Shown: positions 2,894 to 27,816 of the stretch, one piece after another | Numbering within the stretch: the first letter of the stretch is position 1 | How the letters are laid out: each line of letters begins with the position of its first letter | Assembly (NCBI GenBank): GCA_021498095.1 | Contig: JAIZWK010000001.1 | Coordinates: forward strand, 1,020,001 to 1,052,000 | Direction: 5' to 3' | Origin: Candidatus Harpocratesius repetitus | GTDB lineage: Archaea; Asgardarchaeota; Lokiarchaeia; Sigyniarchaeales; Promethearchaeaceae | Length of the DNA stretch: 32,000 nucleotides | Translations under genes and position numbers: made by a program | The notes under the pieces: model-generated | The model's input: only the letters and a program-made list of their open reading frames with translations | Databases searched by the model: none | Told to the model about the DNA's origin: nothing

Positions 2894-4051
2894 ATGGTAA
2901 CAACCGAAAATAGAAAAACTGAAGCAAAAAAATCCATTCTCTTTTCCTTGCCTGAATTAAACTCCAAAATTCTGAAATCACATGAACTGAAGGAAAACAC
3001 GCCTAATTTGTTAAAGCAGAAAATTCCCGAATTGCAGGAAACATTAGAATGCGCTTTAAATCTGTTTTCTCAATTAGATCTTGCTGGAGCGGCCAAAAAT
3101 TTTCGCAAATTAGCGACAGATCTGAAGTTTATCCAAGGTATGTGCTCCACTGAAGGAAATATGCATCCCCGAAATACATTGAATGATTTAACTGGAAAAC
3201 AGTGGTTGCAACATACTAAAAGTTGGTTGATCGTCGATGGACGCCCTAAAGATATGGCTTATGAAATTAAAAATCATCCTGCAAGTTATCCTCCAGCTTT
3301 AGCGGCTCATTTTATTGAATTTTTTACTAAAAAAGGACAGTGGGTTTTTGATCCATTTATGGGAATTGGAAGTACTGCAGAAGCCTGCATTATGACCCAA
3401 CGCAATTGTTATGGCACCGAATTGAATCCCGATTATGCAAACTATACAAAAGAAAGAGTTAATCGACTGAAAAATAATTCTAATTCTTTAGAACCGAGTA
3501 ATAAATTAACATCTGGTTATTCAAATGCTAAATATGATCATTTCTCTTCTAAATGTATAATACAACCTGGTGATGCTAAGAAAGCAGTTAAATATTGGAG
3601 AGATGCCAATCTACCGCTCATGGATTTTCTAATAACATCTCCTCCCTATTGGAATATGCTTCACACAACCCGTGGTGGGGTTAAATCTGCGCTGAAGCAG
3701 CGCGTTGAGAAGGGATTGGATGAAGTATATAGTGAAAATGAAGCTGATTTGGGAAATATTTTTGACTTAACCGAATATCTTGATAAAATCCAAGATTATT
3801 TTCGTCTTTTTAAACCAATGCTAAGATCCGGGGCATATTTAATGGTAATTGTTCAAAATTGTCGACCTAAAGATGGTATCATGGTTCCTCTGGCATGGAA
3901 AATTGCAGATCGGTTAAAAGATGAATATATTTTACGGCAGGAATTTATTTGGTGTCAAGATCAAAAGTTTCTAGGTATTTGGGGGTATCCCACAACCTAT
4001 GTGAGCAATGTACATCACCATTATTGCCTGGTTTTTCAAAACAAAAATTAA
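2894..4051 (+). CDS. Orphan amino-DNA methyltransferase (N4-cytosine/N6-adenine family); SPPY suggests m4C
   Basis: HPASYP (motif X), VFDPFMGIGST (SAM-binding motif I) and ITSPPYW (catalytic motif IV). The order X-I...IV is permuted relative to beta-class enzymes. No endonuclease gene is adjacent. Confidence 0.85.
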   Translation: MVTTENRKTEAKKSILFSLPELNSKILKSHELKENTPNLLKQKIPELQETLECALNLFSQLDLAGAAKNFRKLATDLKFIQGMCSTEGNMHPRNTLNDLTGKQWLQHTKSWLIVDGRPKDMAYEIKNHPASYPPALAAHFIEFFTKKGQWVFDPFMGIGSTAEACIMTQRNCYGTELNPDYANYTKERVNRLKNNSNSLEPSNKLTSGYSNAKYDHFSSKCIIQPGDAKKAVKYWRDANLPLMDFLITSPPYWNMLHTTRGGVKSALKQRVEKGLDEVYSENEADLGNIFDLTEYLDKIQDYFRLFKPMLRSGAYLMVIVQNCRPKDGIMVPLAWKIADRLKDEYILRQEFIWCQDQKFLGIWGYPTTYVSNVHHHYCLVFQNKN

Positions 4052-4152
4052 GTATTTGTGAGTTTTCTAGGAATAAATGGCAATGAAATTTTGAAAACTT
4101 GGCAATGAATTAAAGCCAATTATCAGTTTTTCATCCCCCTAACTTTGATAAA

Positions 4153-4162
4153 TTTTTTTTTT
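4153..4162 (+). terminator. Possible archaeal oligo(T) terminator after the methyltransferase
   Basis: T10 run about 100 nt after the stop codon. Confidence 0.3.
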
Positions 4163-4165
4163 ATT

Positions 4166-4421
4166 TGGATTTATAGAAAATTTATAGAAGAGTGGAAAAA
4201 AAGACTATTAAATAAAAGTACCTTATTCAATTATATTTGAATTTTCTAATAATAATTCTTCAGATACAGATCCTTCTTTATTTAAAGAAGAATTAATTGA
4301 GAAAATTGCCGAAATTGTTCAACTTTATGAAGATTTAGAAAAAGATTTGGATGATATTTTTCTAAAAATTAGAGATATAGCGAAAGGATCATTGAGTTAT
4401 TTATTAACATTAACAATGTAA
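4166..4421 (+). pseudogene. Possible gene remnant with no start codon and one frameshift
   Basis: WIYRKFIEEWKKRLLNK joins through a 1-nt shift in an A-run near 4215 to VPYSIIFEFS..LFKEELIEKIAEIVQLYEDLEKDLDDIFLKIRDIAK..TM* (frame open 4212-4421). The composition is protein-like and helical; no family recognised. Confidence 0.3.
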
Positions 4422-11020: not shown

Positions 11021-12073
11021 TTAATCAGAATCGTCTGATACTTCTTTTTCCTGTTGTTTTGTTAATATATCATTTATTCGAATCTCAGCGATATCTCCGC
11101 AAATATTACTTATTCTCCGGATTGGTATCAAGTATTCAGTGTCAGGATGATCTTCATATATTATTCTTTTAACTTCATCAGCATATTTTTTTATTTTTTC
11201 AGTAAGTAACCAGAGTTCCAAGGAGTTTTTACGCCAGAAATAATCTTGAAGTGTATAAAATGTTTCTCTTGTGCGATATAAATGTTCAAGAATGAAGTGC
11301 CTATCATGAAGTGGTTGATTTTTTGTAACTTTAACTAATTTAGTTATATGATCTCCAATTCTTTCAATCAGTCGCGTAGTTTCTGAATAGTGCAGGCATT
11401 CGACTGAAGTTACATTAATATTTCTACCTAAACTTGGAAAATTGAGTATTTGGTGTACGTATCTTTCTATTGCATATCTGTATTCATCAATTTGATTGTC
11501 TTGTTCTTCTAATTGGTCTAATTCATCATTCAAATCAGTGATTGAATCTAATTCTTCAACAATTTCAATATAATTATTGATCAATAATCCAACTTTGTTT
11601 AGTACCTGCTTACTTAGCACATGAAGATTAACTTCATCAAAGTGTTCTTCTACGACAATCTCGTTGCGCGTCTCCGATATTACTACCATTCCATAGAGTT
11701 TTTGGGTTAACTTATGTATCCTATTCTTGATTTTAGTTGGAATTTTATTTTGCTTTCTGACAATTATAGTTCTATAGCCTATAATATAAGCTGTGAGATA
11801 TAAGTTAAAAAGATATTCTATAAACTGTTCTTCGTCTAATTTCAAACCATCGTTTAAGTTTAAATCTAAATCAATAACATAGGTGGTCATTAATTCTGGT
11901 GCGGTCATATCTGAGCGAATAAGAAGAGAATCATCAGATAACTGCTTTAGAAATACCCTCTTATCTTCAGATACTCCATATTTTCGACACCAGCTTTTTG
12001 GCAAATAGATATAAAATGATCCCTTAACTTCTTGAACCTTCTTTTGTTCAAAATGATCGAAACTGTTGCTCAT
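11021..12073 (-). CDS. phoU: Archaeal phosphate-uptake regulator (N-terminal AbrB/MazE domain + PhoU domains)
   Basis: KKVQEVKGSFYIYLPKSWCRKYG..DKRVFL..DDSLLI (AbrB-like). PhoU signatures EEQDNQIDEYR and RLIERIGDH/RRISNICGDIAE. ATG 12073 is preferred over TTG 12088. Confidence 0.8.
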   Translation of the reverse strand: MSNSFDHFEQKKVQEVKGSFYIYLPKSWCRKYGVSEDKRVFLKQLSDDSLLIRSDMTAPELMTTYVIDLDLNLNDGLKLDEEQFIEYLFNLYLTAYIIGYRTIIVRKQNKIPTKIKNRIHKLTQKLYGMVVISETRNEIVVEEHFDEVNLHVLSKQVLNKVGLLINNYIEIVEELDSITDLNDELDQLEEQDNQIDEYRYAIERYVHQILNFPSLGRNINVTSVECLHYSETTRLIERIGDHITKLVKVTKNQPLHDRHFILEHLYRTRETFYTLQDYFWRKNSLELWLLTEKIKKYADEVKRIIYEDHPDTEYLIPIRRISNICGDIAEIRINDILTKQQEKEVSDDSD

Positions 12074-12154
12074 TTTCTGAGGAATCAAAATTAACCATAT
12101 GGTAAAAAGATAAGTCTTTTGGTAAAGATTATCCTAAAAAAAATGAAAATAGAT

Positions 12155-15100
12155 TTAAAAATAGTATTCTTGCAAAATGAAGAATATTGTTAATAAGAAA
12201 TCGATAATGGCTATTAAAGAGCTCCATAATCGCCATTGCATTGATAAATGGTATATCTCTTCTGATTTTCTTACAGCCCAAATAACATATCCAAAGAAAC
12301 CAAGTAGGATTAAAGTGAAGATCCATGCACGTAGAGGGATAATATTATTTGACAGTAGTGTTCCAAATAAACAAATAAATACTAATAAGCGATAGAGTAG
12401 CTTCTTACCAAAATTTGCTTGAGTGGTTTCTTTTTCTCGTTCTGGGGAAACATAATAGATTATTGCTAAAAACACCAATCCTGAAATAAAGATGTCAGAA
12501 ATAATAAGATACATTCCAATAGCGCCTGTTAGTCCCATTAATGAGAGCACTAACTTTATGTGTTTTTCAATCCAATTCACAACTGCAAAATAGAGACGAA
12601 TAATTCCATCAATTAGCCAACGGAAAAAGTGTATCACTCTCTTGCCAATATGCTTGATAAAATCTATGAACCTTTCCAAGAAAAACAAAATAGGATAAAG
12701 AATGATTGCAAATGAGAGAATAATGAAGGCTAGAATTATCATATTTTGTCCAATAATAAATAAAAAGAGTTCTATGACCATAATAAAGTAAAGAATTTGG
12801 TTTAATTGTTTGTTTCTTAATTTAAAGTACAGTGCTATAGCAACGACTGCTGTAATTAAAAATAGCATTCCTGGAATTATTGTTAATATGTAATAATTAG
12901 GCGGATAAGTTATTGGTGGAGTTTCTTTAATAAATGAAGGTAAAATTAAAAATAAAAAGAATCCCAAGGTTGATGTACTTGAAATGATGAATATAATAAA
13001 AAGAATTAATTCAATCTTTTTTATAATTTTCACACTGATAGAATGAATCTTTTTATAATCTAAATAACCAACAAGATAAAATACTAAAAATATTTCTGAT
13101 ATAAGCACCAAGCGAGTGAAAATTAAGGAATCGAAGTATTCTTTACCTTCTGATAGGTTCAATTCAATTAATGCATTCAATATTAAAGCCGTTGATAGAA
13201 TATAGGTTACCCAAATTAACGAATGCTTTAGATGGGTAAAAAGGCTTGATGTTGGGTCTATTAACAACTTAATTGTATAAAATCCTTCAAAAGTAAAGAT
13301 AAGTAAAACAAAATATATTTTGTAGGTATTGATATTAGGTAGAAAGAATAGCATTCCACAGACAATTGAAAGAAGATTGAAGGAAATCCATGAGATTTGC
13401 ATGTAATGTGATATATACTTTTTAAATTTCATAAAATTCATCCAATTTTCAAACTCTACAATTATGTGGATGAATCCATTGATTAATAAAATTGCAAGAT
13501 ATGGGTTTAAAATACGCCCAATTGTAATTCCAAACCATAATATGAATGAACTATATATTCCGATAAAACTTAACCGATATATTGGCAAATAATTTAATGA
13601 GTGTGCATAACGTGTTTGTTGTAATAATGCCAAGAAGATAAAGAATGGAATGATATAAATCCATTGTTCAGACACTGCAATTAATAGGATACAAGCAGCT
13701 GCTCCCGCAATAATAAGAAGAATTAATGAAATTCTCTCAATTCGGTTAACATCCAAAAATTTATTGATTTTCAATTCCCCAACTGCCAGGATTAAGAACA
13801 TTGTAATCGAACAACATATGATTAGGAGATTAAGGAGATAAAAGGATGGGAAAGAGATTAAAGAAAGTGTAAATATTAAAATGCTAATTATTGCACAAAC
13901 TACATAAAATAGGATTGAAATTACCTGCAAAAATTTAAGAGAAGAAGTTTTGGATTTCAAACCTAACAAGTTTAATTGATATCGATTTGAATATCGAATC
14001 ATTACATTAAGAGCGATAAGATAAACTCCTATCATCAACAACAAACTAATTCCCCAATTAATTGTTGAAAAACTTGAGCCAAAATAATCAACAGCAGTTG
14101 GAACTATTGAAGGTAAAATATAATTGAAAATAAGTATAAGCAAACTGAAAGTGCATGCAGGGAAAATTAGCATCCAAACTGCATTGATATAGCGCAATAC
14201 CTCAGGGGATTTAAATATCTTTATAGAAGCTGGGATTTTTTCCCATTTAATTGCCAAATCTTTAGTATGAATTTTGGTAGAGTCGAATTCACTAAATACT
14301 TCGTAATTTTCAAACGATTTTGTTGATCTTGCTTCTTTTATTTGAAGATAATTCTTTACCTGTGTATGATTGTTCCTTGTTTCTAAAATTATTGTAAAAA
14401 AGATACTAAAAACAAATAGAACCAGTAATGCCTTAAATATTAAGAGTGAACTATAATCCCCAATTCTGAATAATACCCAATCACTAAATATATATTGAGT
14501 TAACATACCCAATATTGAAAATTGGCGAAGACTCCAAATAAATGTCGAAGTTGTTGTCTTTTTTGTTTCACTTAAATACAAAATTGAAAAAATGAATACA
14601 AAAGCACTCCAATTAAAGATAAGAGCAGATGAATTCAGATTTTGTAGTAATATTTCAATTAACAATGCTAAACAGAATTTCCAGAATAATCTTATATATT
14701 TTTTACCAAAATCAGGAATAGTTCGGCTTGAAATGGATAAATAAAAGAAACCTATTGAAATTAAGAGGTCTATCAACAAAATTTGAAACACTTTATTTAA
14801 TTCCACTGAAAAAATTCCAAGCAATCTTAATAGTATTTGGAATATTAATGTAGAGACCATAAGAAATGTAATATATAACCAGATTGCCCCCCCCTTAAAG
14901 AAAAATTTGCCTTTCTTCCAAGGAACGTCAATGTTTTTTAAGTAATCCCAAATAAAAGTTCCATATAATAAGAAAATAAACAAGATTAAATTAATAAAAA
15001 CCGTTATTTTATAAAATGTTGAGGTTTGATTTAACACATTAAGTTTCCAGATGATAAAATAAGCAATTCTGCTGAAAAACCCTGTGAAAATTAAAGAATA

Positions 15101-18100
15101 TACACATAACCACAAAATAAAAATAGTGACTCTCTGGTCTTTATTGTTTGAACCATGTAATATAATATTATAATTAATTTTCTTCTGTTTTATGCTAGAA
15201 TCTTGTGAATTCAAAGAATTATGCCCTGTTTCCCCATAAAAAGTAATCAATAGTAGTTCTATCGTATAAAAAAAGCCAAAAATAAAGGAATACCAGATTA
15301 TAGAATCAAATAATGAAAGTTCTGTTAATATAATCATAGTAATAACTAAATAAAAACTGTTGCAGAGAAGATTTGCATTTATTGCCCAAAATGTATAAAC
15401 CCGAATTGGATTTGAGATATAACGTAAATTTAGCATGCATAAAATGACCAAACTTAAAGAAATGTTTGTTAATGGCAGAATTGTGGTATTTAATCGGAGT
15501 ATTTCAAAAATGTAGAGTGTTAAAGAAAGACTTGCTGTAAATTTAATCGTTTCATATATTTGTTTAATGAAATACTTAGTATTCATTAAAATCAAAAATA
15601 CTACACTTAGAATAAGGAAATTAAGCATCAATTTTGCAAAGTGAATATGTAGAATTTCACCAGAAATATCCATAAGTGCCCAGAGATGACTAAATAAAAG
15701 TAATCCAAAAGTATACAGAGCAACCTGTTTGATTATCGCAGAATTTTTTAAGAATTGATATTTAAAATTCCATTCTATTCCTTGTATTCTCAAATTATTG
15801 AGAAAATATAACCATCCTAAAGAAATTAATGTTGAAAAACTACATGTCCAAAGAACTATTTGATATATAATAGAATCTGTGGTATTTTCAACTAATTGCA
15901 CAAAAATTCTATTCCAAAACTGGTTGATCGCAATAATTGATAAAGTAATGCATAGTGATATGAATTGTTGGTAAAGAGAAATAATGTTTTCTGATAAAAT
16001 GAATCTTTTATTACTTTCAGCTTTTTCATTTCCACTTTTATTAATATTATAATCAATTTTTTCAGATTTATTGGTATTTTCATCAAAAGTGTCATCAGAC
16101 ATTGAAATAACTATTGCTGGGAAAATAGAATGATGATATAAACCTGAATCAGCTGAAATAATTATTCTTTTATCTATTAATTTTGTAATTACTAAATGAA
16201 GCACTCCACTAAATATTCCAATGAAAAAGAGAATGCTTTCAAATAAAGTAAACGATATTTGGGTTAATGAAATGATTAATATCCCCAAATTAAATAGAAA
16301 TACTGAGAAAGAAAAGCTTAATAATCCCCAGAAGGCAATTACTTGCTTATTTGAGCGGATTAATCGATTACTTGCAAGCGAAAACATTGCAAGAAATACC
16401 GCTGAAATATTGATAATTTCGAGTAATAAGCTAATTGGTTGATTTGTAAATGATCTGAATCCTTCTGCAATTAAAGCAGCCAAAACAAGGTTTAATTGAA
16501 ATGCAAGTGCTTTACGGGTTTTTTGAGGTAAGATATTAATTCGCACAAAGAAATAATCGATAGAAGTTACAATTAATCCTATAAATATCAAGTTAAACAA
16601 GAATAAATTTCCAATTGATGGAGAAAGATTAAACGATATGTAGAGTATCCAAAATAGACTAATATTCAATAATATTGTATTTCCAATAATTAACCATATA
16701 TGAAATTGGAATAAATGAATTCTGTTGATTAAATATAATGTATAAAATGTAATTGATGTAAATAAAAGTAAGCCTAACTGCCATGAATTCCACAAAAGAT
16801 AAGAAAGAGATGAGAGAAGCAAACTAAATGTAAACACAAGTATCCATTGCATTTGTAATCGAAATCTTTTAGGAATTGATTTAACAAAATACTGATCAAT
16901 ACCAATTATGCATGCATACAATGATGAAATAAAAATTAAAGTACGATTAAGAAAAATTTCAATTAAGTCTAAACTATTTAAATTTGAAATATATCTTATT
17001 TCTACAGGAAAGTTTAATGCTAAAATGAGTGAATCAAATACATAAACAAATTGTATAATAATCGTTTGAATAGTGGAGAGCATTTTATGAATTTCTCTTA
17101 AATCTTGTAGAATTACTGATTTCTTCACATAAAATATTATCAAAAGGGAAAAGATAATCAAACAATTAAATAAAAGTGCTGCAAAATTAAACCACACGAA
17201 ATTAAAATGAATATGTAAAGAAAGAACAAAATTGATAGAACTTGATATTGAAAATAGAGTCCAAACAGCCAAGTATAATAAGTAATTCTTCATTTTATTG
17301 GAGAAGATTCCAAATCTAATCATTTTATATCCAATAAAGCTGATTCCAAGAAAAATCGCGAGAAGAATGTTAATAAAAGTAAGAGAAGGTTGAATTTGAG
17401 CAAGATTCCAAATAGAGATTGCAGATTGATTCAGAATTAATCCAATTGCGGTTCCAATAATCAAAATTGGAATTATCAATCGAGTACGGAGTAATGGAAA
17501 AGAAATAAATGTAAATACAATAAGCAAGATTCCTGTTGATGCCCACACTCCTACATTGAAAGCAGTAAGGAAAATCTCAAAAGCAGCCAGTCCAAAAGAC
17601 AATGACATGAAAAACCAGCTAATTTGGTATAATTCTTTCAAAAGATAGTCTTTCACTTGGAATAATAGAAGTATTGCCCAGAAAAATGCGCATCCAATGA
17701 AAATACCAAAAAGATTTAAATTAACGGCTGAAATCAAATTAAAAACTCGCCAGATAACAACTCCTGTACTAAAAGCTAAACAGAATGAGAAAATAGGCTT
17801 AAGAATTTTAGTCTCTATCTTAAAGTATTTTCCTGGAATCAAAGCAAAGCTCATAATAATTAGTGTAATTGATGCTGAAATAATCCAATCGTAAAATATT
17901 ATGACTACAAATGAATATAATAAGGCAAAAAGGCTTCCAAACATAATGATATAGCTGGAAATTGTAAAGGTCAAATATAAAAGCGGTTTCTTGTTTTTTA
18001 TTAATGGAAAATTGGTATAAATAATAAGATAAATTCCAAACAATAAGAAATTAAGAGGAATCTCCCATTGCAATCCAAAATTGAAATATAATGAGAAGAA

Positions 18101-21100
18101 AACTATATTTAAACCACATGCCAATGGCCAAAGATACATTAAAAGTTGCCATCGTTTTCTAAAATAATAATATGGAATAATTACTGCAATTGTTATCAAT
18201 CCAACAAATGGGATTTGTAATATGAATTCTGTAGGAAAAAGATTAACAGATGCCCAATAAGCTAATAAAAGCAGTTCAGTCCAAAAGGCGTAAACAAAAT
18301 AATCAATATATTGCTTTAACTTGGTGAGAAGATATGGTAAATACAATAAGGAGCACACCACAATGGAGAGAACAATCGAACCTGATAATGATAAATTAGA
18401 TAGTTTTATTGCCATTGTGTATTGGTCGATGTTTGTGACCGCTTCAAAAATTAAGACAAAATTTACAATAGGAACAAAAAGCCATGCAGTAGCTCCTTTT
18501 ATCCATATTTCTTTTGTGAATTGATGTAAATATAATCCTACTCCAATAAAATAGATAAAAATAAAGAAATCTAAAGCGATTGGAACAGCTATTTTGATAG
18601 ATAACTGAATTAGATTTGGTTCAACTAGCAATAAGAAAATATTTGAAGAAAATCCCGCACCTGAAAAGAATAGAGTCATTTTAACCATTTCAGGACGAAT
18701 AGGAATATCAAAGTGATCATAATAGTAAAAATAAACCAACAGCGTCGACCCAATTCCTAAGGTGATACTTAATACGATAGAATAAATTAATGAATAGAAA
18801 AGATAACAATATCCAATTGAAAGGAAAAATATTAATGTATGGGCAAAAATAATGCCTGTAAAGATTGACTTTTGTCGCTGAGAAGTAGTTGTTTTTCGTA
18901 ATAAATATATTAAAGAAAGAGCAATTCCAAATACTACAGGAGCAATATAACGCATTACAATGAAATAATCGAAGAGAAGCAAACTAAATGCAAGAACTCC
19001 CATTCCATAGGCAAAATACCCTAAAATAGTTTTTAAAAGATTATGTCGCCATGTTTTTGAAACTCCACATAGAATCCATTCACCAAGTGTACCGATAGTG
19101 ATGCTTGCTGTTATACTTAAGTACCAAGAAATGGAATAATAAGCCATTAAGTTATATAGGAAAAATATAATAGAACTTACAAATAAGGTTACGAAGAATA
19201 GATTTAAATAACTACGTGGAGAAAACATCATGAATAAACTGCCTGTAATTAGCAAAATTAAGCTAATTATTAGCGGTAACTGTGAAACAATTGACCAATA
19301 GAGAGTTAGGATCACAAAGTTTTCAATATTTATTATCTCTTTTGGACGTGGAAGGAGAGAAGTTGTTAATCTGTGAAGACTTCCAATAAACACAATAGCA
19401 AAAACAAAGTATACGTAAAAATTAATTGGTTGGAAATAAGAATAAATAAGATAATAAAAGATATTAATGAGAACAATCGAAAAGTTAATAGTAAATCGAT
19501 CTTCTTTTGCCCCGAGTGATTTTATTAGATAGAAAATTCCTAATAAATTAAAGCTCAGCGCTGAAATCAATGAAATATGATTTAATAAAACAATACGAAT
19601 CCAAAAATACGAAAGAAGCACTCCAGCAAATATCATTATTCCTTGAATTATATTATTATACTTTTTATGAAAACTGTCTATAACTGTAAAACCAACCGGT
19701 ATTTGTTCTATTTTTTGTGGTATTTCTGAAGGATTATGGCTTAAATTTGCTTTAATCTGATTTTCTATTGGAGTATTCGGAGATTCTCTTACATCAACTA
19801 TAACATTGCTTTTTTTGATTTCATTAGTTAATTTTTGTTTTTCTTGAATTTCCACGTATATATCTATGAAATTTTCGTAAAATGCTTCTGATTTTCTTAA
19901 TGCAAAATAAATTTCAGGCAGAGCAACCAAACTAAAAACAAAAATTTGAGATTCGATATTAAATGCAATTAAATCAGAAATTACCCAAGCAATACTAAAA
20001 CTTGAAAAGATATAAACAAAAGATTGAGCTACAATGTGGAGCTTTCTATTCATAAAGAGGTGTAAATGGCTTTTATCATAAAATAGAGCAGCGATTAAAA
20101 TTAGACTCATAAAAATCAAAAAGAAATATGGAGATATCACATTATTGGTCCCAAAGAATATAATTGCAAGTAGATTTAGGACTAATAATGAAAAACTACC
20201 TTGAAGTAGGTGGAAAGATAGTTTTTCATGAATTCTCCCCTTTCTAAATACTTTAAGAGCAAAATAAGTACAGCTGATGGGAAAAAGAAGAACAATACTA
20301 AAAATTAGAAAAGAAGCACCATCATTAGTAAGAGGAATACAATAATGAACCAATGCTCCAAATAACAACCAACCAGTAGTAACAATGATGAATCCTAATG
20401 TTTCATACCAAATTGATACAGGAATGCACTTTTTGAAATATGGAACACTTAAAATAAGTGCATCTAAAAAGATAAAGCCAAAGAATACTGAGGTTATCCA
20501 TCTTGTTCCAAATTGAATATGCAAAAATGTTGTTAAAATTGAGAATAACTCAAATAATATCATTCTTTTAATAAATAGAACAATTTGAAAGAAATGCTTA
20601 TTTAAGTAAGATTGAATATTAGCAATTTTGGATAGAATAAAAGTAATATAAAGTTGATTAAGAATAATAAGTCCAACAAATAAATCCCAACGAAAAGGTA
20701 CAGTGAATAAAATCCCAAATGAAACACACAAGACTGTAATATATGAATAGAGATAGAATTCTATTATGAAAACATGTTGATATTTTGAATCTTCCTGAAT
20801 TTTCCTATTCCTTTGATTAAAATATAGAAAAATACCAGGTAATATCATATTTATTGCCACAATAAAGAACCAATTTCCTGAAGGAATCATAGATTTCATT
20901 AGGTTAAAATCATAGAACCCAGATAGATGACTAAAGAGAAGAATTCCTGCTAAAATCATAGAATAGATCTGGATATGCAATAAAGTGAAATAGATTGATT
21001 CCCAAGTCTTTGTCTTGATAAGTTTAAATTCTTGAAATTTTTCAATATTGTGTTTAATTAAAGGTAAGAAATATTGAAATCCTAAAATAACAAGATAAAA

Positions 21101-24100
21101 TGAATATGCTTGTGGCTCCAATATCGCATTTTCATCAATAAGGAAAAATTTCACCTGTTGAATACAAAAGAGATAAAACGAAATAAGAATCGTATTTATG
21201 AGAATAAGTTTTAATGTTTCAAATAAAATGGGCATAATGTAGTTAGCAAAGAGCTTAATTCGAGTAAACATAATAATGCAATATAGACTTATAAGAAAAA
21301 CACTAATTCTAATGCTCCAAGATAAATATTCCTGAAAAAGGATAAATCCAAAGACCGCTCCGATTACAATATTTTGCATTAACAAGAAATCAATAATCCT
21401 TTTTTCATATATTTTAAATTTCTTATTAATTTGTGAGATGTTTTTAGTTGTTTGGATTAATGTGGTGCTTAAAAATAGTACTGCAAGTGGATACAGTATT
21501 ATTTCGCGTGGGTTAAGTAAAATTATCATAATTGTTTGCGAAAAAGCAAAAATATTCCACCAAAAGATCAATTCATATTGAATAAATCTTGAAAATCGTT
21601 TTAAGGAATCAAGAATCTTTAATTGTTGAGATTTTTGAATAATATGATAAATTAATAAAGATGGGAGAAATCCAGATATTATAATTAAAGATCCATTGGA
21701 GACTATTCCATTAAGATTGATCCAATTAATTACATTTACAAATAAGCCCAAAAATGTTGAATACAATGAAAAAATCCCAATCTGATAAAAAATTGGTAAT
21801 GAAATTGAATAAACTCTTTCTGAGATTAATTTAATACGATAAAATTTGTAAATACTGTAGATAATTGAACTAATTATGTAAAAACTGGCAACACATATTA
21901 AGAGAATACGAGTATAAATAGAAAATAATGAGAAGTCCCATATTTTGGAATATATAATACTGATTAGACAATTAAGTGAGTTTAGAAGTAGAAGTATACT
22001 CTTTATTATTGTATCGAAATGATATGTTAAAATTTTCTTTCTCATTTGAATAAATGAGTAAATAACATAAGTTATTGCAGAAGCGATAAAAGCTGTAAAA
22101 AAGAAGGAGATTAACAAGAAATATTTAAATAGCAAAGCAATAGCTAAAGAAAATACCAATGAGTTTACTAAAAGGAATGAATTTCTAATTATTTCGATAG
22201 ATTTTTGTTTTGAAGGATAGATGATTTCAAATTTTTGGAAGATTTTTCGAAGAATTTCTAGACATATTGCAGAAAATAGAAAAATTAGATAATATTGCAT
22301 ATGAAAAATAATACAGAGATTTAGAGTGATAACTAAAACCACTAAAACTTCAGTAATAATAGTGATTAACTTAATTGGGTTTTTATATTGGTTTTCTGAA
22401 ATAAATACATAATAATTATGCCTATTGTGAAATGAAATAAAAATATAGAATAATACAGCATCAAAAATTATCAAAATCTGGAGAATTATATTCTCCTGCA
22501 TGATGGTTGAAGGATCAGTTTTTTCAATTAAAAAAACAATAAATCCAATATTTAGAGCATTAAGAAAAATTATAACTATCCATTTTACGAAACGAATTAA
22601 TAAATATCGCTTTTTTGGAATTATTGTAGCTTCAAAAAGAGAATTAAGCGGATCTTGAATTAAACTTAAGTCAATCCTGATTACACTCAAGATTATGATA
22701 AAAGTTAATAAATAAAGATAAATATTTTCTTTAAAGACAAAATTTGAAAGAATTTTGAATCCTAAATATATCGATGAGCTTGAAAAAGAAAGAATTAACA
22801 GACCTTGGTATATAATTTTTCCTAAATCATATAATCTCAGTTTATTCCAAAATTTATTTAGAAAGAATATTTTTTTCAATTCTTGAGAATTTGAATAATG
22901 TAATAAAGCAAGAATAACACCAACGAATAGACAAGGTAAAAAGTTCCAAGTAGAAAGTTCAAATAATAAAAATGTTGTAATAAACAAGATTAAAGTATTA
23001 TTGATAATAAGAATGGATGAATCAATCCATTTTTTTATTATATGAAAATCTCGCTGTAGAAAAGCAGGAATTAATTGATTCTTTGAAAATGTGATTAATA
23101 TATTCCAGATGAATTGACCAATAAATAAACTTGAGATACTTGGCCAAAGAAAGAAGAGAATAAATGAACTGATGCGAAGGACACCTATCTGCAAAAAAAA
23201 ATTGATTTTTTGACAGAAATTCTTAGGTAGTAATCCAAACTTCTGATTTATCATGACAAATACAATAATTAGTAAAATACTCAGAATAAAAGCAGTCGAT
23301 AAAGAAAATAAATTGATAAATAAGGTTTTTGAATGGAAAAACATTGTAAATTGTGCACACCATTCTCCTGAACTATCAATCAAGTTTTGTAATCCTAATG
23401 CATTTATTACTCTTTTTTTATTGAAATAATTCAAAATTTCTATATATCTAGTAATATTTAGGATGAAAGAAATATAATTAAATATGCCCTTGATTATCAA
23501 TAAAAATAGACCTATTTGAAAAATACATAAACTGATTGTTATTGAAGCAAAAAAAGATTTAGGGGGTTTTTCTTTAAATTCTTTCTTCAATACATAATAA
23601 AATATGGAAAGTAATGAAAGATTAAGAAAGAAAATATAATTAATTACTGGATATTTATTTATCAACCATCCTCGTTTAGAAGTAAAAACTGCAAGGGAAA
23701 GCCCTAATTCTATAAATAAGATCAAATAGAGAAGAGTTTCTATTTTTTGCAAATATTTTTGTAGATTTTCATCATAAATCTTTAATAATTTTTCTCCAAC
23801 AATTGCTAAAACTGTGCAAATGATTAGTTGAATATACCAAGGCAATGGAATGATAAAAAAGCAATTGAAAATAATAGCTATATAGAAAAGAAGTTGAATC
23901 TGGTAGTCCTGTCCGCGAGATTGAATTTTTATAATATATTGCTCCAAAATTGAGCCCACAAACATGATTCCAAAAGAAAAACCAACAAATTCTTGATTTA
24001 CTTGACTCAGTAGTGAATAACCAAAAAGGAAAATTGCCAGAACAACTGAAAATATATTATTTACTGCTTGCAAATGTGATTTTGAATGTAGAGGACTAAG

Positions 24101-25045
24101 ATATTTGATTCGTTCTTGACGAAATTTGATTAGAAGGATACACGTGCCTTTAATTAACCAAAAAATTGAAAAAAGTAAAATGATTGGAAATGAGATATTT
24201 ATTTTATAGAATTGTGCAATTAAACTGATGAAGGGAGTTAATAATAAGATAATTTTTATGATATCTAATATGTAAAGGGAAAAATAGAGTTGTTTTTCAT
24301 TATTAAAAGAAGCTTTTTTATTTAAATTTATTTTAATTAAGTGGATTCCAACAGGAGTTAGAAGAATTATTAGTAAATTTAAAAGAGTATCAAGCCAAAC
24401 TTCATGAAAAATCAAGATTGTTGCAGTTGAGACCAATCTATTGGCAAAAAGGGAGATATAGAGTTCATGGGTTAAATTTCTTGATTTCTTTTTTAAGAAA
24501 TTTTCAAAGAGATGGTTATGAGGGGTATTATCAATAGATTCCTTAGTTAATTCTTTAAAACTATGATTGTTTTTGAAATCTAAGATAAAAAATTGCCAGT
24601 ATAATCTAATTCCCAAAAGAAACAAAAGGTTGCTGATAAAGGGGAAAAAAAACTCAAATGAAGCATATTGCTTAATTGTGAAAATGGCTGAAAATGTGAT
24701 ATTACTTAAAAAAACAGGCAAAAACGCGGTAATTAAGGCTGCAATGATACCATTTTTAAAATTCTGTTGTGTAATATACCAATGTTTTGATTTTTTTCTT
24801 GCACGGTAGAATAATCCTAATCCAAAAGGTAAAACAAATAAAATCGCCAAAACAAAAAACCCAATGCTGTATTCCCCAATTAGAAAATCTTCATGAGCAA
24901 TAATTGCTGAAATTCCGGCAGAAAAAACACCAAAAATTCCAGGAATGGCGAAAATATATATTAAACCAAATGCAATTCCAGAGAGAAGTTCAGTTATTTT
25001 TCCTAAATTTTCACTTGTTGAAGAATTTTGATTAATTGATGCCAT
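12155..25045 (-). CDS. Giant (4296 aa) polytopic membrane protein of unknown function
   Basis: Uninterrupted 12.9-kb ORF in very AT-rich DNA. It is a continuous series of ~20-aa hydrophobic segments (I/L/F-rich) separated by short Lys-rich loops. No enzyme or nucleotide-binding motif was recognised. GGGGG lies about 11 nt upstream of the ATG. Confidence 0.9.
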   Translation of the reverse strand: MASINQNSSTSENLGKITELLSGIAFGLIYIFAIPGIFGVFSAGISAIIAHEDFLIGEYSIGFFVLAILFVLPFGLGLFYRARKKSKHWYITQQNFKNGIIAALITAFLPVFLSNITFSAIFTIKQYASFEFFFPFISNLLFLLGIRLYWQFFILDFKNNHSFKELTKESIDNTPHNHLFENFLKKKSRNLTHELYISLFANRLVSTATILIFHEVWLDTLLNLLIILLTPVGIHLIKINLNKKASFNNEKQLYFSLYILDIIKIILLLTPFISLIAQFYKINISFPIILLFSIFWLIKGTCILLIKFRQERIKYLSPLHSKSHLQAVNNIFSVVLAIFLFGYSLLSQVNQEFVGFSFGIMFVGSILEQYIIKIQSRGQDYQIQLLFYIAIIFNCFFIIPLPWYIQLIICTVLAIVGEKLLKIYDENLQKYLQKIETLLYLILFIELGLSLAVFTSKRGWLINKYPVINYIFFLNLSLLSIFYYVLKKEFKEKPPKSFFASITISLCIFQIGLFLLIIKGIFNYISFILNITRYIEILNYFNKKRVINALGLQNLIDSSGEWCAQFTMFFHSKTLFINLFSLSTAFILSILLIIVFVMINQKFGLLPKNFCQKINFFLQIGVLRISSFILFFLWPSISSLFIGQFIWNILITFSKNQLIPAFLQRDFHIIKKWIDSSILIINNTLILFITTFLLFELSTWNFLPCLFVGVILALLHYSNSQELKKIFFLNKFWNKLRLYDLGKIIYQGLLILSFSSSSIYLGFKILSNFVFKENIYLYLLTFIIILSVIRIDLSLIQDPLNSLFEATIIPKKRYLLIRFVKWIVIIFLNALNIGFIVFLIEKTDPSTIMQENIILQILIIFDAVLFYIFISFHNRHNYYVFISENQYKNPIKLITIITEVLVVLVITLNLCIIFHMQYYLIFLFSAICLEILRKIFQKFEIIYPSKQKSIEIIRNSFLLVNSLVFSLAIALLFKYFLLISFFFTAFIASAITYVIYSFIQMRKKILTYHFDTIIKSILLLLNSLNCLISIIYSKIWDFSLFSIYTRILLICVASFYIISSIIYSIYKFYRIKLISERVYSISLPIFYQIGIFSLYSTFLGLFVNVINWINLNGIVSNGSLIIISGFLPSLLIYHIIQKSQQLKILDSLKRFSRFIQYELIFWWNIFAFSQTIMIILLNPREIILYPLAVLFLSTTLIQTTKNISQINKKFKIYEKRIIDFLLMQNIVIGAVFGFILFQEYLSWSIRISVFLISLYCIIMFTRIKLFANYIMPILFETLKLILINTILISFYLFCIQQVKFFLIDENAILEPQAYSFYLVILGFQYFLPLIKHNIEKFQEFKLIKTKTWESIYFTLLHIQIYSMILAGILLFSHLSGFYDFNLMKSMIPSGNWFFIVAINMILPGIFLYFNQRNRKIQEDSKYQHVFIIEFYLYSYITVLCVSFGILFTVPFRWDLFVGLIILNQLYITFILSKIANIQSYLNKHFFQIVLFIKRMILFELFSILTTFLHIQFGTRWITSVFFGFIFLDALILSVPYFKKCIPVSIWYETLGFIIVTTGWLLFGALVHYCIPLTNDGASFLIFSIVLLFPISCTYFALKVFRKGRIHEKLSFHLLQGSFSLLVLNLLAIIFFGTNNVISPYFFLIFMSLILIAALFYDKSHLHLFMNRKLHIVAQSFVYIFSSFSIAWVISDLIAFNIESQIFVFSLVALPEIYFALRKSEAFYENFIDIYVEIQEKQKLTNEIKKSNVIVDVRESPNTPIENQIKANLSHNPSEIPQKIEQIPVGFTVIDSFHKKYNNIIQGIMIFAGVLLSYFWIRIVLLNHISLISALSFNLLGIFYLIKSLGAKEDRFTINFSIVLINIFYYLIYSYFQPINFYVYFVFAIVFIGSLHRLTTSLLPRPKEIINIENFVILTLYWSIVSQLPLIISLILLITGSLFMMFSPRSYLNLFFVTLFVSSIIFFLYNLMAYYSISWYLSITASITIGTLGEWILCGVSKTWRHNLLKTILGYFAYGMGVLAFSLLLFDYFIVMRYIAPVVFGIALSLIYLLRKTTTSQRQKSIFTGIIFAHTLIFFLSIGYCYLFYSLIYSIVLSITLGIGSTLLVYFYYYDHFDIPIRPEMVKMTLFFSGAGFSSNIFLLLVEPNLIQLSIKIAVPIALDFFIFIYFIGVGLYLHQFTKEIWIKGATAWLFVPIVNFVLIFEAVTNIDQYTMAIKLSNLSLSGSIVLSIVVCSLLYLPYLLTKLKQYIDYFVYAFWTELLLLAYWASVNLFPTEFILQIPFVGLITIAVIIPYYYFRKRWQLLMYLWPLACGLNIVFFSLYFNFGLQWEIPLNFLLFGIYLIIYTNFPLIKNKKPLLYLTFTISSYIIMFGSLFALLYSFVVIIFYDWIISASITLIIMSFALIPGKYFKIETKILKPIFSFCLAFSTGVVIWRVFNLISAVNLNLFGIFIGCAFFWAILLLFQVKDYLLKELYQISWFFMSLSFGLAAFEIFLTAFNVGVWASTGILLIVFTFISFPLLRTRLIIPILIIGTAIGLILNQSAISIWNLAQIQPSLTFINILLAIFLGISFIGYKMIRFGIFSNKMKNYLLYLAVWTLFSISSSINFVLSLHIHFNFVWFNFAALLFNCLIIFSLLIIFYVKKSVILQDLREIHKMLSTIQTIIIQFVYVFDSLILALNFPVEIRYISNLNSLDLIEIFLNRTLIFISSLYACIIGIDQYFVKSIPKRFRLQMQWILVFTFSLLLSSLSYLLWNSWQLGLLLFTSITFYTLYLINRIHLFQFHIWLIIGNTILLNISLFWILYISFNLSPSIGNLFLFNLIFIGLIVTSIDYFFVRINILPQKTRKALAFQLNLVLAALIAEGFRSFTNQPISLLLEIINISAVFLAMFSLASNRLIRSNKQVIAFWGLLSFSFSVFLFNLGILIISLTQISFTLFESILFFIGIFSGVLHLVITKLIDKRIIISADSGLYHHSIFPAIVISMSDDTFDENTNKSEKIDYNINKSGNEKAESNKRFILSENIISLYQQFISLCITLSIIAINQFWNRIFVQLVENTTDSIIYQIVLWTCSFSTLISLGWLYFLNNLRIQGIEWNFKYQFLKNSAIIKQVALYTFGLLLFSHLWALMDISGEILHIHFAKLMLNFLILSVVFLILMNTKYFIKQIYETIKFTASLSLTLYIFEILRLNTTILPLTNISLSLVILCMLNLRYISNPIRVYTFWAINANLLCNSFYLVITMIILTELSLFDSIIWYSFIFGFFYTIELLLITFYGETGHNSLNSQDSSIKQKKINYNIILHGSNNKDQRVTIFILWLCVYSLIFTGFFSRIAYFIIWKLNVLNQTSTFYKITVFINLILFIFLLYGTFIWDYLKNIDVPWKKGKFFFKGGAIWLYITFLMVSTLIFQILLRLLGIFSVELNKVFQILLIDLLISIGFFYLSISSRTIPDFGKKYIRLFWKFCLALLIEILLQNLNSSALIFNWSAFVFIFSILYLSETKKTTTSTFIWSLRQFSILGMLTQYIFSDWVLFRIGDYSSLLIFKALLVLFVFSIFFTIILETRNNHTQVKNYLQIKEARSTKSFENYEVFSEFDSTKIHTKDLAIKWEKIPASIKIFKSPEVLRYINAVWMLIFPACTFSLLILIFNYILPSIVPTAVDYFGSSFSTINWGISLLLMIGVYLIALNVMIRYSNRYQLNLLGLKSKTSSLKFLQVISILFYVVCAIISILIFTLSLISFPSFYLLNLLIICCSITMFLILAVGELKINKFLDVNRIERISLILLIIAGAAACILLIAVSEQWIYIIPFFIFLALLQQTRYAHSLNYLPIYRLSFIGIYSSFILWFGITIGRILNPYLAILLINGFIHIIVEFENWMNFMKFKKYISHYMQISWISFNLLSIVCGMLFFLPNINTYKIYFVLLIFTFEGFYTIKLLIDPTSSLFTHLKHSLIWVTYILSTALILNALIELNLSEGKEYFDSLIFTRLVLISEIFLVFYLVGYLDYKKIHSISVKIIKKIELILFIIFIISSTSTLGFFLFLILPSFIKETPPITYPPNYYILTIIPGMLFLITAVVAIALYFKLRNKQLNQILYFIMVIELFLFIIGQNMIILAFIILSFAIILYPILFFLERFIDFIKHIGKRVIHFFRWLIDGIIRLYFAVVNWIEKHIKLVLSLMGLTGAIGMYLIISDIFISGLVFLAIIYYVSPEREKETTQANFGKKLLYRLLVFICLFGTLLSNNIIPLRAWIFTLILLGFFGYVIWAVRKSEEIYHLSMQWRLWSSLIAIIDFLLTIFFILQEYYF

Positions 25046-25405
25046 TATTTATATTTCCCCCATTTTTACTATCTTTGCAACCTAAAAATCAAGATGGAAT
25101 AATAAAAAAAATAATTATTATCCTTTATCGGAGGAAGAATTTTCTATAAAAAATCTCCGTGTTTTTCCCAAGTTGATGAATTTTAGGCTGTGATAATCAA
25201 TATTACTTTAAACATTTAAATCTTAGTGGGGATAATTTTTCTAGAAAGAATTTTAACAATAAAAAAAGCCCCACTTTTAAATTATTCTTTATCTCTATAT
25301 TAAAAATTTTGGTGTTAACCAAGGTAGAAGTGAAATATTTGTGTGAAACCTCATGAAAAAAAAGAAAAAATCTTAACTATTATAGTTCTACAAGGAATTC
25401 AATCT

Positions 25406-26302
25406 TCATTCTTCTATCTTCTGCTTTACTCCTTGCTTTGGTGTTCCGATAAGAATTATCAGAAGTAAAAGAATTAAAAGAATAATAAGAAAAAAACCTG
25501 CACCTATCAAGAAAGATAGAAAATAATCATTGAAGAATGGGCTTGCAAGCAAGAAAATTATCAATCCTAACGCCCAATTTATATAAGCGGAAACAATTAT
25601 ATAAAGACCTACTCTGAAAGAGAGTTGAGATCCGATAAATTTAATTTTTCGATGAGATTCATCTGATTTCAAAAGTTCTTTTGCTTTAGATTGATGTTGG
25701 ATTAATATATTCATCCATTTTATGAAGGCCATCATTCCAGCACCTAATAGGCACCAAAATGCTTCGATAAATTGAAATGGGTTGCTAATTGGATAAATAA
25801 AAGAAATAATATATTTTATTGTTGCTAAAAGGAAATTCAACCATGCAAAATACAAGATCAGATAGATCATTCCTGTAGCAAAGCTGAAAGATCCTTTTAT
25901 TGTTCCTTTATCAAAAGATTCTCGAATTTTGATATTAATTTTATACATCATCGAAAAGTGTTTTCGCAGCAATGGTACGTTTTTTAGCTTTTTCAAGCGA
26001 TTTGGCTCAATTTTAATGAGTACTGCAATGGCACCAAACAGATAGTAGAGAGCGAATGATATAATCAATGGAATTTCAATATATTGAGAAATTACATAAC
26101 TCAAACCTAGGAAAAATAGATATGAAAGGATGGAAATCCAAAAATTATTCTTATTTGGTTTGTTTTCATCGGTATTATCAATGTTTCTTAATCCTTCGTC
26201 TTCTTCCTTCAAAATTTCATCTTTTTTTTCTTCATCTATATTAACTACATTAGATTGTGATTTATCTTTGGGTTTTTTCAAGAATTTTAAAAATGGGGTC
26301 AT
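25406..26302 (-). CDS. Hypothetical membrane protein (about 6-7 TM helices, charged N-terminal tail)
   Basis: ATG 26302 is preceded by AAGGAGTGA, which overlaps the amylase stop, so it is preferred over GTG 26338. Several hydrophobic segments follow an acidic/Lys-rich N-terminus. Confidence 0.7.
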   Translation of the reverse strand: MTPFLKFLKKPKDKSQSNVVNIDEEKKDEILKEEDEGLRNIDNTDENKPNKNNFWISILSYLFFLGLSYVISQYIEIPLIISFALYYLFGAIAVLIKIEPNRLKKLKNVPLLRKHFSMMYKINIKIRESFDKGTIKGSFSFATGMIYLILYFAWLNFLLATIKYIISFIYPISNPFQFIEAFWCLLGAGMMAFIKWMNILIQHQSKAKELLKSDESHRKIKFIGSQLSFRVGLYIIVSAYINWALGLIIFLLASPFFNDYFLSFLIGAGFFLIILLILLLLIILIGTPKQGVKQKIEE

Positions 26303-26307
26303 ATTTT

Positions 26308-26316
26308 TCACTCCTT
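26308..26316 (-). promoter_or_regulatory. Shine-Dalgarno site AAGGAGTGA
   Basis: 5 nt upstream of ATG 26302; includes the TGA of the amylase gene. Confidence 0.6.
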
Positions 26317-27816
26317 TATTATTTTTAATGCTTCCCACGGTAAAACTTCTAAAATGGGATTAATCATTGAGTTCTGATTTGAAAACTGTCCCATTCTACC
26401 GGTGTTCGTTAGTGAATACCATTTCCAATTCAAGGATTTGCTTCTTTTCGATAACTCATTATCATTTCGTGTTTTTATGATGAACTCATCTAAAGTTTGC
26501 GTTGATGGGCTGTAATTTATTAGGATAATTTCCAAATCATCTGTACATTGCCATATATAGCCGATAATTGATTCTGGAAGATCCTTTAATAAAAACCAAT
26601 TAACTTCTTTTGGTTGTGTTTGGTATTTCAAAAAGGGAGTCGAATAAAGCGATGAATAGAATTGATACAATTCATCGTTTTTTACTTCTACAGGATAACG
26701 TGCTAATTGAACTGGTAATTTTAATTTCCAACCAAATTGTTGTCCGTAATGATGGAGATATGCACCAGGTAGAGTGTATGTGAGTACAGCAGCTGCCTTT
26801 GATCTTTCTTGTTTTAAGGTGTAATTTGCACGCAATTCGTCATGATTTTCGATAAATCGGAGTAATTTACGTTGATAATTCCATGAAGCTGTAAGATGGA
26901 TGCGTATATCTTCAGTTGATGCATGAATCAGTCTATCAAATAAACGCTTATCATAACAGAAATCAAAACCAAGCTGCTGAAGTTGCCATTCCATATCCCA
27001 ATATACCTCTGCAATAAACAGAAAGTTTGGGTGTTTTTTTTTGATATTTGATATAATTTCGTCCCAAAATTCTCGGTTCAATGGTGATCCTGCGCGTTCT
27101 TTCCAAGTCTGGTGAAAAATACGATTGGTTAATAGCATTGCCATATCACATCGAACACCATCGACCCATTTTGCCATCCTATCTAAGGTTAGAATAACTT
27201 CGTGACGATATTCAGAAGAGAATGCATTCAATTGAGCCGTATCTGTCCAAGAGGGGAAAAAAGGATCTTTTCCGTGAGCAAAGATTGCTGAATTGTTAAA
27301 ATTTTTATTCTTCTCTTTCCTGTGTTGACCATCGATTTGAAAAAAATCTTTGGGATGAAATTTAAGATCTTCAGTAGAGCCATGAATAAAATACTCTGGA
27401 TGTAGTTTTACCCATTCATGATCGAGAGCTACATGATTAGGGATGAAATCAACGACCAGCTTTTTTCCCTGTTCATGCAATTGATTCGATAAATTAATAA
27501 AATCCGATTCATCTCCAAAATATGGATCTATTGTGTATGCAGCAACTGCATATGGAGAACCAATAACATCATCATTATTATAATCTGATAATGCTTTTTT
27601 GTATTCTATTTGTAATCCTTCGTGATTTTGGGCAATTTCTTTTCCAATTTTACTACGTTTCCATATTCCCATAAACCAAACATAGTCAAAATGCATTAAT
27701 TCCTTGCTCCAGATTGTTTTTGGAATATCTGCTATGGTTTTAATGTTATTTTCCTTTTTCCATTGCAGCAACCACGGCCATGTATTGATTTCAATAATTC
27801 TTGGAAAGAAATTCAT
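26308..27816 (-). CDS. GH13 alpha-amylase-family glycoside hydrolase (cytoplasmic)
   Basis: GSPYAV, VVDFIPNHVA, catalytic DGVRCDMA (nucleophile), FIAEVYW (acid/base) and RFIENHDE; no signal peptide. Confidence 0.92.
   Translation of the reverse strand: MNFFPRIIEINTWPWLLQWKKENNIKTIADIPKTIWSKELMHFDYVWFMGIWKRSKIGKEIAQNHEGLQIEYKKALSDYNNDDVIGSPYAVAAYTIDPYFGDESDFINLSNQLHEQGKKLVVDFIPNHVALDHEWVKLHPEYFIHGSTEDLKFHPKDFFQIDGQHRKEKNKNFNNSAIFAHGKDPFFPSWTDTAQLNAFSSEYRHEVILTLDRMAKWVDGVRCDMAMLLTNRIFHQTWKERAGSPLNREFWDEIISNIKKKHPNFLFIAEVYWDMEWQLQQLGFDFCYDKRLFDRLIHASTEDIRIHLTASWNYQRKLLRFIENHDELRANYTLKQERSKAAAVLTYTLPGAYLHHYGQQFGWKLKLPVQLARYPVEVKNDELYQFYSSLYSTPFLKYQTQPKEVNWFLLKDLPESIIGYIWQCTDDLEIILINYSPSTQTLDEFIIKTRNDNELSKRSKSLNWKWYSLTNTGRMGQFSNQNSMINPILEVLPWEALKIIKE

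Follow-up and report, generated by a model that had tools for sequence, protein, structure and literature searches.

Introduction

What task could be served by a protein chain of which some 65% is transmembrane (TM) helix, with almost nothing outside the membrane? The question is raised by a gene in the window analysed here, a 32,000-nucleotide stretch of the genome of Candidatus Harpocratesius repetitus (assembly GCA_021498095.1, contig JAIZWK010000001.1, positions 1,020,001 to 1,052,000 of the forward strand), a member of the Lokiarchaeia within the Asgard archaea. The gene lies on the minus strand and encodes P0001, a giant polytopic membrane protein of 4,296 amino acids. An earlier note, made from the letters of the sequence alone, had described it as an intact frame consisting of TM helices nearly from wall to wall. 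This article considers whether the gene is real, how its product is arranged in the membrane, what family it belongs to and what the most conserved part of the chain may do.

Taken as one joint claim, and held with very high confidence, the answer to the structural part of the question is as follows. P0001 is a genuine integral membrane protein of about 105-137 TM helices, with its N-terminus inside, Lys/Arg-rich cytoplasmic loops and short outward loops. It belongs to an undescribed, mostly single-copy family found in one order, and is built of N-terminal, core, and C-terminal modules together with two arrays of eight-helix units, the second of which has a copy number of 0-5 that tracks protein length.

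Integrity of the Gene

12155..25045 (-): the whole gene, encoding P0001; 4,296 codons plus stop, with an ATG start

Translation of this interval meets no internal stop. The region has a GC content of 23-30% (~28% overall), and as the local composition implies a stop chance of ~0.08 per random codon, an open frame of 4,296 codons is not due to chance; the opposite strand holds no open reading frame (ORF) of at least 100 amino acids (aa). The gene is present in one copy and is the second-longest ORF in the 4.36-Mb single-contig genome, and among ORFs of at least 1,000 aa it is the only one to exceed 17 hydrophobic windows. The longest frame, of 10,102 codons (C1:958946-989254 (-)), lies ~31 kb before the window and has 6 hydrophobic windows; it is a second giant gene, of a soluble or surface kind.

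The assembly was judged against DNA runs and a related genome. One DNA run contains 86% of the words sampled, and its contigs, none of which spans the whole gene, match all 30 bins of the gene with exact identity and without indel or joint. A congeneric genome carries a collinear frame of 4,293 codons at 49% identity. Given this exact coverage and the congener's frame, there is no sign of the assembly chimera for which the earlier note had allowed, and its description of an intact 4,296-aa protein stands.

It could nevertheless be argued, from the AT-rich surroundings and the decayed genes nearby, that the locus contains no functional gene, the frame being open by chance or in decay, the product of a chimeric assembly, or antisense to some other gene. 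Against this are the length of the open frame at ~28% GC, the empty opposite strand, the coverage of every bin by contigs without indels, orthologues that are collinear throughout the order, and ratios of non-synonymous to synonymous substitution (dN/dS) of 0.13-0.40 along the gene in relatives. The probability left to this explanation is negligible: the giant gene is real, intact and conserved.

Some strain-level variation was also seen. In the best DNA run the long contigs flanking the gene have a depth of ~12-13, its interior (window 13870-23350) is represented by 0.7-1.1-kb contigs at a depth of ~3-9, and a variant contig of depth 4.8 inside the gene carries 5 changes in ~60 bp, a pattern suggestive of two strains occurring together and diverging more within the giant gene than beside it. 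The population variants from two DNA runs (n=12, 6 synonymous and 6 non-synonymous) are too few to use. In a hydrothermal-vent metagenome of 2018, short contigs are 95-100% identical to stretches of the gene and of the flank upstream of it (window 12900-25700), and a close relative is therefore present in that kind of sample.

Helix Number and Membrane Topology

The composition of P0001 is dominated by Ile (16.1%), Leu (15.6%), and Phe (10.9%), which together make up 42.6% of its residues, with 210 Lys versus 102 Arg and a mean Kyte-Doolittle (KD) hydropathy of +0.9. Non-overlapping 19-residue windows with a KD mean of at least 1.6 number 106 (84 at a threshold of 1.8), compared with 72±3, and a maximum of 79, in 30 shuffles of the same residues. 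Semi-Markov segmentation divides the chain into 127-147 helices depending on the choice of parameters, a count that is no evidence by itself, as shuffled chains give 148. The real chain does, however, differ from its shuffles in segmentation score (6098 versus 5155±96) and in the number of charged residues within helix cores (79 versus 177±10). Over residues 1880-2620 segmentation finds 24-26 helices and an AlphaFold2 model of the same 741 aa has 26 helices of at least 14 aa; segmentation that agrees with the model gives about 130-137 helices for the whole chain.

The distribution of positive charge supplies the topology. In the family-averaged profile the even-numbered loops hold 213 Lys and Arg (K/R) residues and the odd-numbered loops 44, and loop K/R content is autocorrelated negatively at lag 1 (-0.47) and positively at lag 2 (+0.49). 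For the single sequence the lag-1 value is -0.45, versus -0.02±0.08 in shuffles, and the alternation recurs in 22 of 22 family members tested (lag-1 values of -0.35 to -0.66). This is the positive-inside rule, obeyed along the whole chain, and a real multi-pass topology fits because K/R-rich loops alternate strictly with K/R-poor ones.

Little of the chain is left for the aqueous phases. The median loop is 9 aa long and only six loops reach 30 aa or more, the longest having 86 aa; all six are K/R-rich and five are on the cytoplasmic (K/R-rich) parity. The K/R-poor loops average ~7 aa, and many consist of just 2-5 aa. Predicted helices contain ~65% of the residues at a density of about one per 31-41 residues, and the first begins near residue 20. 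P0001 lacks both soluble domains and a cleavable-looking signal peptide. Our estimate is thus roughly 105-137 TM helices, with the N-terminus inside and ~65% of residues in the membrane. The count of about 100 or more that the earlier note had made by eye survives the comparison with shuffled chains and the K/R alternation, with no drop to a far smaller number, and its further statements that large soluble domains and a signal peptide are lacking are borne out as well.

A Family Found in One Order

The window's order comprises the families designated here f1 to f4, of which f3 is a sister family with shorter proteins. A word-indexed protein search returned nine relatives of P0001, of 2,791-4,356 aa and 27-44% identity, all of them unnamed or annotated as 'hypothetical'. 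An alignment of 15 sequences shows collinear homology at 19-46% identity, with residues 1900-2600 the most conserved and a second conserved stretch at the C-terminus; overall, full-length homologues share 19-49% identity. The profile of the core (alignment A1), which scores 988 bits on the window's gene, matches just 42 clusters, of up to 4,905 aa, among 1.84 billion representatives. It matches 112 of the 153 genomes of the window's order (f1, 11/13; f2, 1/1; f3, 98/135; f4, 2/4) and none of the 247 genomes from the remainder of the phylum, that is, other Asgard archaea. The gene is nearly always single copy, with frames of ~2,500-3,300 aa in f3 and 3,100-4,900 aa in f1, and the family members examined span 2,569-4,908 aa. 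P0001 itself has the expected residue in 11 of 11 invariant core columns, collinear N-terminal, core, and C-terminal modules, and ~3 helices per 100 aa.

Two cultured organisms carry homologues. In Promethearchaeum syntrophicum MK-D1 an exact look-up retrieves QEE15075.1 (DSAG12_00898), a 'hypothetical protein' of 3,940 aa that is a true homologue, collinear over its full length at ~25% identity. It has the three conserved modules, the core signature and the K/R alternation of P0001, and ~128 predicted helices, but two units of the second array (B units) rather than three, two matches to the units of the first array (A units), both weak, and different neighbouring genes. Candidatus Lokiarchaeum ossiferum has two paralogues, both annotated as 'hypothetical', where the window's genome has a single copy: UYP46621.1 (NEF87_002906), of 3,146 aa, and another of 4,908 aa encoded ~236 kb away; they share the core signature and the topology statistics of the family but contain one B unit and four to five B units, respectively. 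No mention of the accessions of these cultured homologues was found in the searchable library of papers. The survey of Asgard homologues and paralogues proposed in the earlier note therefore shows an undescribed family, with no members detected outside the order to which MK-D1 and L. ossiferum belong.

Selection was measured among three congeneric relatives of MK-D1, since the window's gene and its nearest orthologue have diverged too far for synonymous divergence (dS) to be estimated. Over ~3,300 codons (dS 0.58-0.72) dN/dS is 0.22. In windows of 300 codons it is below 1 throughout, falling to 0.13-0.15 in the core and rising to 0.40 in the last window, in the region of array B. Together with the collinear homologues across the order, these values bear out the purifying selection that the earlier note had deduced from the open frame.

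Modules and Eight-Helix Cassettes

Profile-profile comparison divides the chain into the following parts, given in the order in which they are translated.

23495..25045 (-): N-terminal conserved module, residues 1-517, ~14-16 helices; hhalign against f3 pairs 1-517 with 1-527 (probability 89.6%)
20789..23224 (-): array A, residues 608-1419, three tandem eight-helix units of ~270 aa; self profile-profile comparison, shift ~277 aa (probability 96.5%, E 9e-10)
16640..18787 (-): conserved core module, residues 2087-2802, the most conserved part; hhalign against f3 pairs 2087-2802 with 1284-1993 (probability 99.9%, E 3e-36)
13946..16663 (-): array B, residues 2795-3700, three tandem eight-helix units of ~300 aa; self hhalign, shifts 320 and 284 aa (probability 98.2%, E 5e-14)
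12158..13978 (-): C-terminal conserved module, residues 3690-4296, ~19 helices; hhalign against f3 pairs 3690-4286 with 2093-2704 (probability 97.6%)

The repeats were detected by profile-profile self-comparison of a collinear alignment of five sequences, which contains no indel of more than 32 residues besides an N-terminal truncation; self-BLASTP reveals no internal repeats. Every unit of both arrays has 8 predicted helices. In the unit alignment (A3) each B unit also has one cytoplasmic loop of 40-64 aa and a conserved E..R and W pattern. No relation was detected between units A and B, or between either of them and the rest of the chain. Near its end the C-terminal module carries conserved E4262, W4271, and R4272. 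Searches for the N- and C-terminal modules as stand-alone proteins gave no match of similar length, within the sensitivity of the word index.

In f3 proteins the core and C-terminal modules are just ~100 residues apart, so array B is an insertion of family f1. P0001 and its counterpart in the congener each have three B units, and the proteins of the MK-D1 genus two. A scan of twelve f3 and f4 proteins did not find the unit, and the genomes of f2, f3, and f4 yield one marginal match (E 3e-4). Outside the order its profile finds just three weak matches (E 1e-5 to 3e-4), two of them with internal stops. Across the family a B-unit copy number of 0-5 tracks protein length, which thus grows by whole eight-helix cassettes; as the number of helices in a cassette is even, the topology of everything downstream is preserved.

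Comparison With Known Families and Folds

Pfam contains nothing that matches the whole protein at E ≤1 or any of seven pieces of it at E ≤10, bar two chance-level rows (E 8.8 and 9.8) that belong to other families. NCBIfam has no match for P0001, and PDB sequences none with the core profile. Fold searches used two models that both cover the core, one of 741 aa (residues 1880-2620; predicted local distance difference test, pLDDT, 73.7) and one of 416 aa (residues 2124-2539; pLDDT 88.6). For both, nothing above background was returned from the PDB by Foldseek, from ~48,000 PDB representatives by VIA-align, from AlphaFold DB clusters or from the ESM Atlas. The best rows were alpha-solenoid or TPR-type repeats, DUF2339 models, and three-helix pieces of respiratory subunits, with template-modelling scores (TM-scores) ≤0.37 and Z ≤9, all within the stated background for helical proteins. 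A feature search of the ESM Atlas gave just unnamed bacterial clusters, together with a low recognition value. As far as the tools used can see, P0001 appears to represent a new family and fold. The full-length match to a characterised family for which the earlier note had allowed was not found, either with the whole protein or with its pieces.

The most obvious candidates for a hidden relationship deserve separate comment. DUF2339 (PF10101) proteins of bacteria resemble P0001 in their long runs of TM helices, short loops, and uncharacterised function, but the AlphaFold DB rows are far shorter, at 482-1,278 aa. The kinship with this family that the earlier note had thought worth checking was not found at the sequence level: the DUF2339 hidden Markov model (HMM) has no match on P0001 or in the six-frame translation of the genome. 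Among 201 genomes of the phylum it gives three sub-threshold matches, and the sole one in the order (genome G181) is on contig C198, the giant gene being on C107. The Foldseek rows to DUF2339 models are weak (TM-score by query 0.20-0.30, E 0.1-0.7). With VIA-align, small subunits of the NuoK/NuoJ/Mrp/MBH type align as three-helix pieces (Z 7.0-7.8 on 74-105 residues), which is within the helical background, and neither Proton_antipo nor Nuo/Mrp HMMs match P0001.

The mechanosensitive channels Piezo1 and Piezo2, with 38 TM segments per chain, are described as having the most among channels (e.g. PMC9256749). They resemble P0001 in design logic, combining a conserved module, repeated units of TM helices, and a very large membrane footprint. 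No sequence similarity was found, and no Piezo row appears in the Foldseek or VIA-align lists for the core models. The Piezo blade is made of four-helix units, in contrast to the eight-helix units of P0001, and Piezo has a C-terminal pore module with a large extracellular cap, whereas P0001, with no loop longer than 86 aa, has no domain of that size. P0001 further differs in having about three times more helices per chain and in being archaeal and confined to one order.

It is conceivable that P0001 is a remote member of one of these polytopic families (DUF2339, Piezo or the antiporter-like subunits of complex I and Mrp) that sequence methods cannot see, and the recurrence of DUF2339 models among the weak Foldseek rows and the three-helix likeness to small complex I/Mrp/MBH subunits could be read in that way. 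Such membership is nonetheless very improbable, in view of the lack of any Pfam match even at E ≤10, the failure of the DUF2339 HMM in this genome and its placement of the one sub-threshold match in the order on a different contig, fold scores that all lie inside the background for helical models, and a repeat unit of eight rather than four helices with no extracellular cap.

A large number of helices in one chain is not itself unprecedented. Giant proteins of Omnitrophota have up to 331 predicted helices per chain and share with P0001 the property of exceeding 100, but they are at least 100,000 aa long, with large soluble parts and about one helix per 370 residues (bioRxiv 10.64898/2026.06.07.730766). 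Helices account for ~2% of their residues, compared with ~65% in P0001, where one occurs every 31-41 residues.

The Core Signature and What It May Mean

17429..18676 (-): signature sub-core, residues 2124-2539; 34-sequence alignment (A2) and AlphaFold2 model (pLDDT 88.6; predicted TM-score, pTM, 0.71)

Eleven residues of the core are invariant in the 34-sequence alignment: W2181, W2188, P2192, N2195, G2222, P2237, W2255, W2264, P2291, W2299, and W2306. S2223, N2268 (94%), and P2347 are nearly invariant, D2207 (88%), N2313 (88%), and E2257 (79%) are mostly conserved, and position 2159 is always polar. In the AlphaFold2 model a helix is broken exactly at W2188/P2192/N2195, and the next loop forms a small beta-hairpin (2213-2220). 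Judged from the K/R parity of the loops on either side, this loop lies on the outer face, where no other well-conserved element was noted. The earlier note's remark that no catalytic motif is present therefore needs qualification, in that the core has a conserved intramembrane polar cluster (N2195, N2268, D2207, N2313, and E2257) and a broken helix.

The reading that we prefer, tentatively and at a probability of about 35%, is that the core serves either to bind or conduct an ion or a small solute or to sense the membrane, and that the cassettes are expandable membrane-embedded arms. The conserved core would be the working part of the chain. Its polar residues N2195, E2257, N2268, N2313, and position 2159 are predicted to fall in some seven adjacent helices, with D2207 in the adjoining outward loop; the core also contains the invariant prolines and glycines, the helix broken at W2188-P2192-N2195, and the single conserved outward hairpin loop. 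A pattern of this kind, in which polar residues accompany a broken helix, is typical of binding or conduction sites for ions or small polar solutes within the membrane. The eight-helix arrays would enlarge the membrane footprint, to ~130-150 nm2 per chain on the assumption of ~1 nm2 per helix, and as arms they may link the core to conditions in the membrane around it. The overall plan would then be Piezo-like, with a conserved pore module and repeated helical units but without homology. Several observations weigh against this reading. The invariant residues are mostly Trp, Pro, and Gly and may be purely structural, the acidic positions D2207 (88%) and E2257 (79%) are not invariant, the confident model of the core recovered no transporter or channel fold, and there is no conserved neighbour gene to suggest a substrate or partner.

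The same predominance of Trp, Pro, and Gly counts in favour of the main rival of a conducting or sensing core, namely that P0001 is a purely structural scaffold. In that case a row or sheet of helical hairpins, with no conducting or catalytic site, would occupy, stiffen, curve or partition the membrane, such as that of the thin protrusions seen on Lokiarchaeia cells. Minimal loops on both faces and the lack of soluble domains are in keeping with such a role, as is a length that varies by whole eight-helix units, which would be expected if area or length is what matters. The nearest Foldseek rows, to alpha-solenoid/TPR-like proteins and DUF2339 (TM-score ≤0.37), hint that the hairpins form an extended array and not a compact bundle, although this geometry is derived solely from weak fold-search rows; the family is, moreover, confined to one order. 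A scaffold would, however, have no need of a conserved intramembrane cluster of Asn, Asp, and Glu or of a broken helix, the core is more tightly constrained than the arrays, and the product of a gene that is usually single copy would have to be highly abundant to shape a membrane. We regard the scaffold as a possible but doubtful explanation.

Gene Neighbourhood

25046..25405 (-): AT-rich intergenic region of 360 bp upstream of the giant gene's start, with a G-run ~11 nt before the ATG, as read from the sequence
11021-12088 (-): gene for a PhoU-domain protein, 66 bp downstream of the giant gene and adjacent to it in the congener also
25406-26338 (-): ORF of 310 aa directly upstream of the giant gene, without a Pfam match and overlapping, at its start, the end of the alpha-amylase gene
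26308-27816 (-): alpha-amylase family gene, upstream

The 360-bp region presumably holds the giant gene's own promoter. In two f3 loci, too, PhoU-domain genes are found no more than 5 kb from the giant gene, but on its other side, and one of them has an AbrB/MazE-like domain as well; the PhoU link is weak and possibly a coincidence. Other genes near the f3 loci encode a GH4 protein, an aminotransferase, an MFS transporter, and a Liv-type ABC transporter. In MK-D1 the gene immediately upstream (L010:3207-4442) encodes an SPFH/Band-7 protein of the flotillin-like, membrane-microdomain type, and the window has no such neighbour. Synteny is kept among close relatives only, the neighbours differing beyond the genus, and seems to reflect shared descent rather than a functional link. 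Nothing in the window or in the loci of relatives points to defence or exchange, and the roles that the earlier note had floated, a membrane-shaping or mechanosensory scaffold, a pore between cells or viral exclusion, are conjectural.

The glycoside hydrolase genes found upstream in two lineages, of the alpha-amylase family here and GH4 in f3, bear on a further explanation, by which P0001 is an enzyme embedded in the membrane, the core being its active site and its substrates lipids, isoprenoid carriers or glycans within the bilayer. The conserved intramembrane polar residues and the conserved outward hairpin loop carrying D2207 would also suit an enzyme. But the 34-sequence alignment of the core contains no invariant His, Asp, Glu, Arg or Lys, no GT-C, polyprenyl or acyltransferase family is matched by HMM or fold, and the upstream hydrolases come from different families in a synteny limited to close relatives. 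This explanation is accordingly rated as improbable. The remaining probability belongs to functions that have not been thought of.

Implications for the Biology of Lokiarchaeia

The number of helices most commonly cited as the maximum for a single chain is the 38 of Piezo, and we know of no characterised protein that packs as many TM helices per chain as P0001 at its density. Besides the task of such a chain, the family raises the question of how it is inserted and folded by the archaeal Sec/YidC machinery, and of why a gene that is usually single copy occurs in just the Asgard order that holds the two best-studied cultured relatives of eukaryotes. Direct testing is possible in those organisms, as both MK-D1 and L. 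ossiferum have homologues, and the map of modules and cassettes separates the core from the variable arrays. The furthest-reaching reading, that this is a new class of membrane protein in which eight-helix cassettes make up an expandable chain with over 100 helices and allow one molecule to organise or sense a membrane patch of more than 100 nm2 in Lokiarchaeia, is one that we consider unlikely. If true, it would tie the family to the unusual membrane architecture of Lokiarchaeia, with its protrusions and lack of a classical wall, in the closest cultured relatives of eukaryotes.

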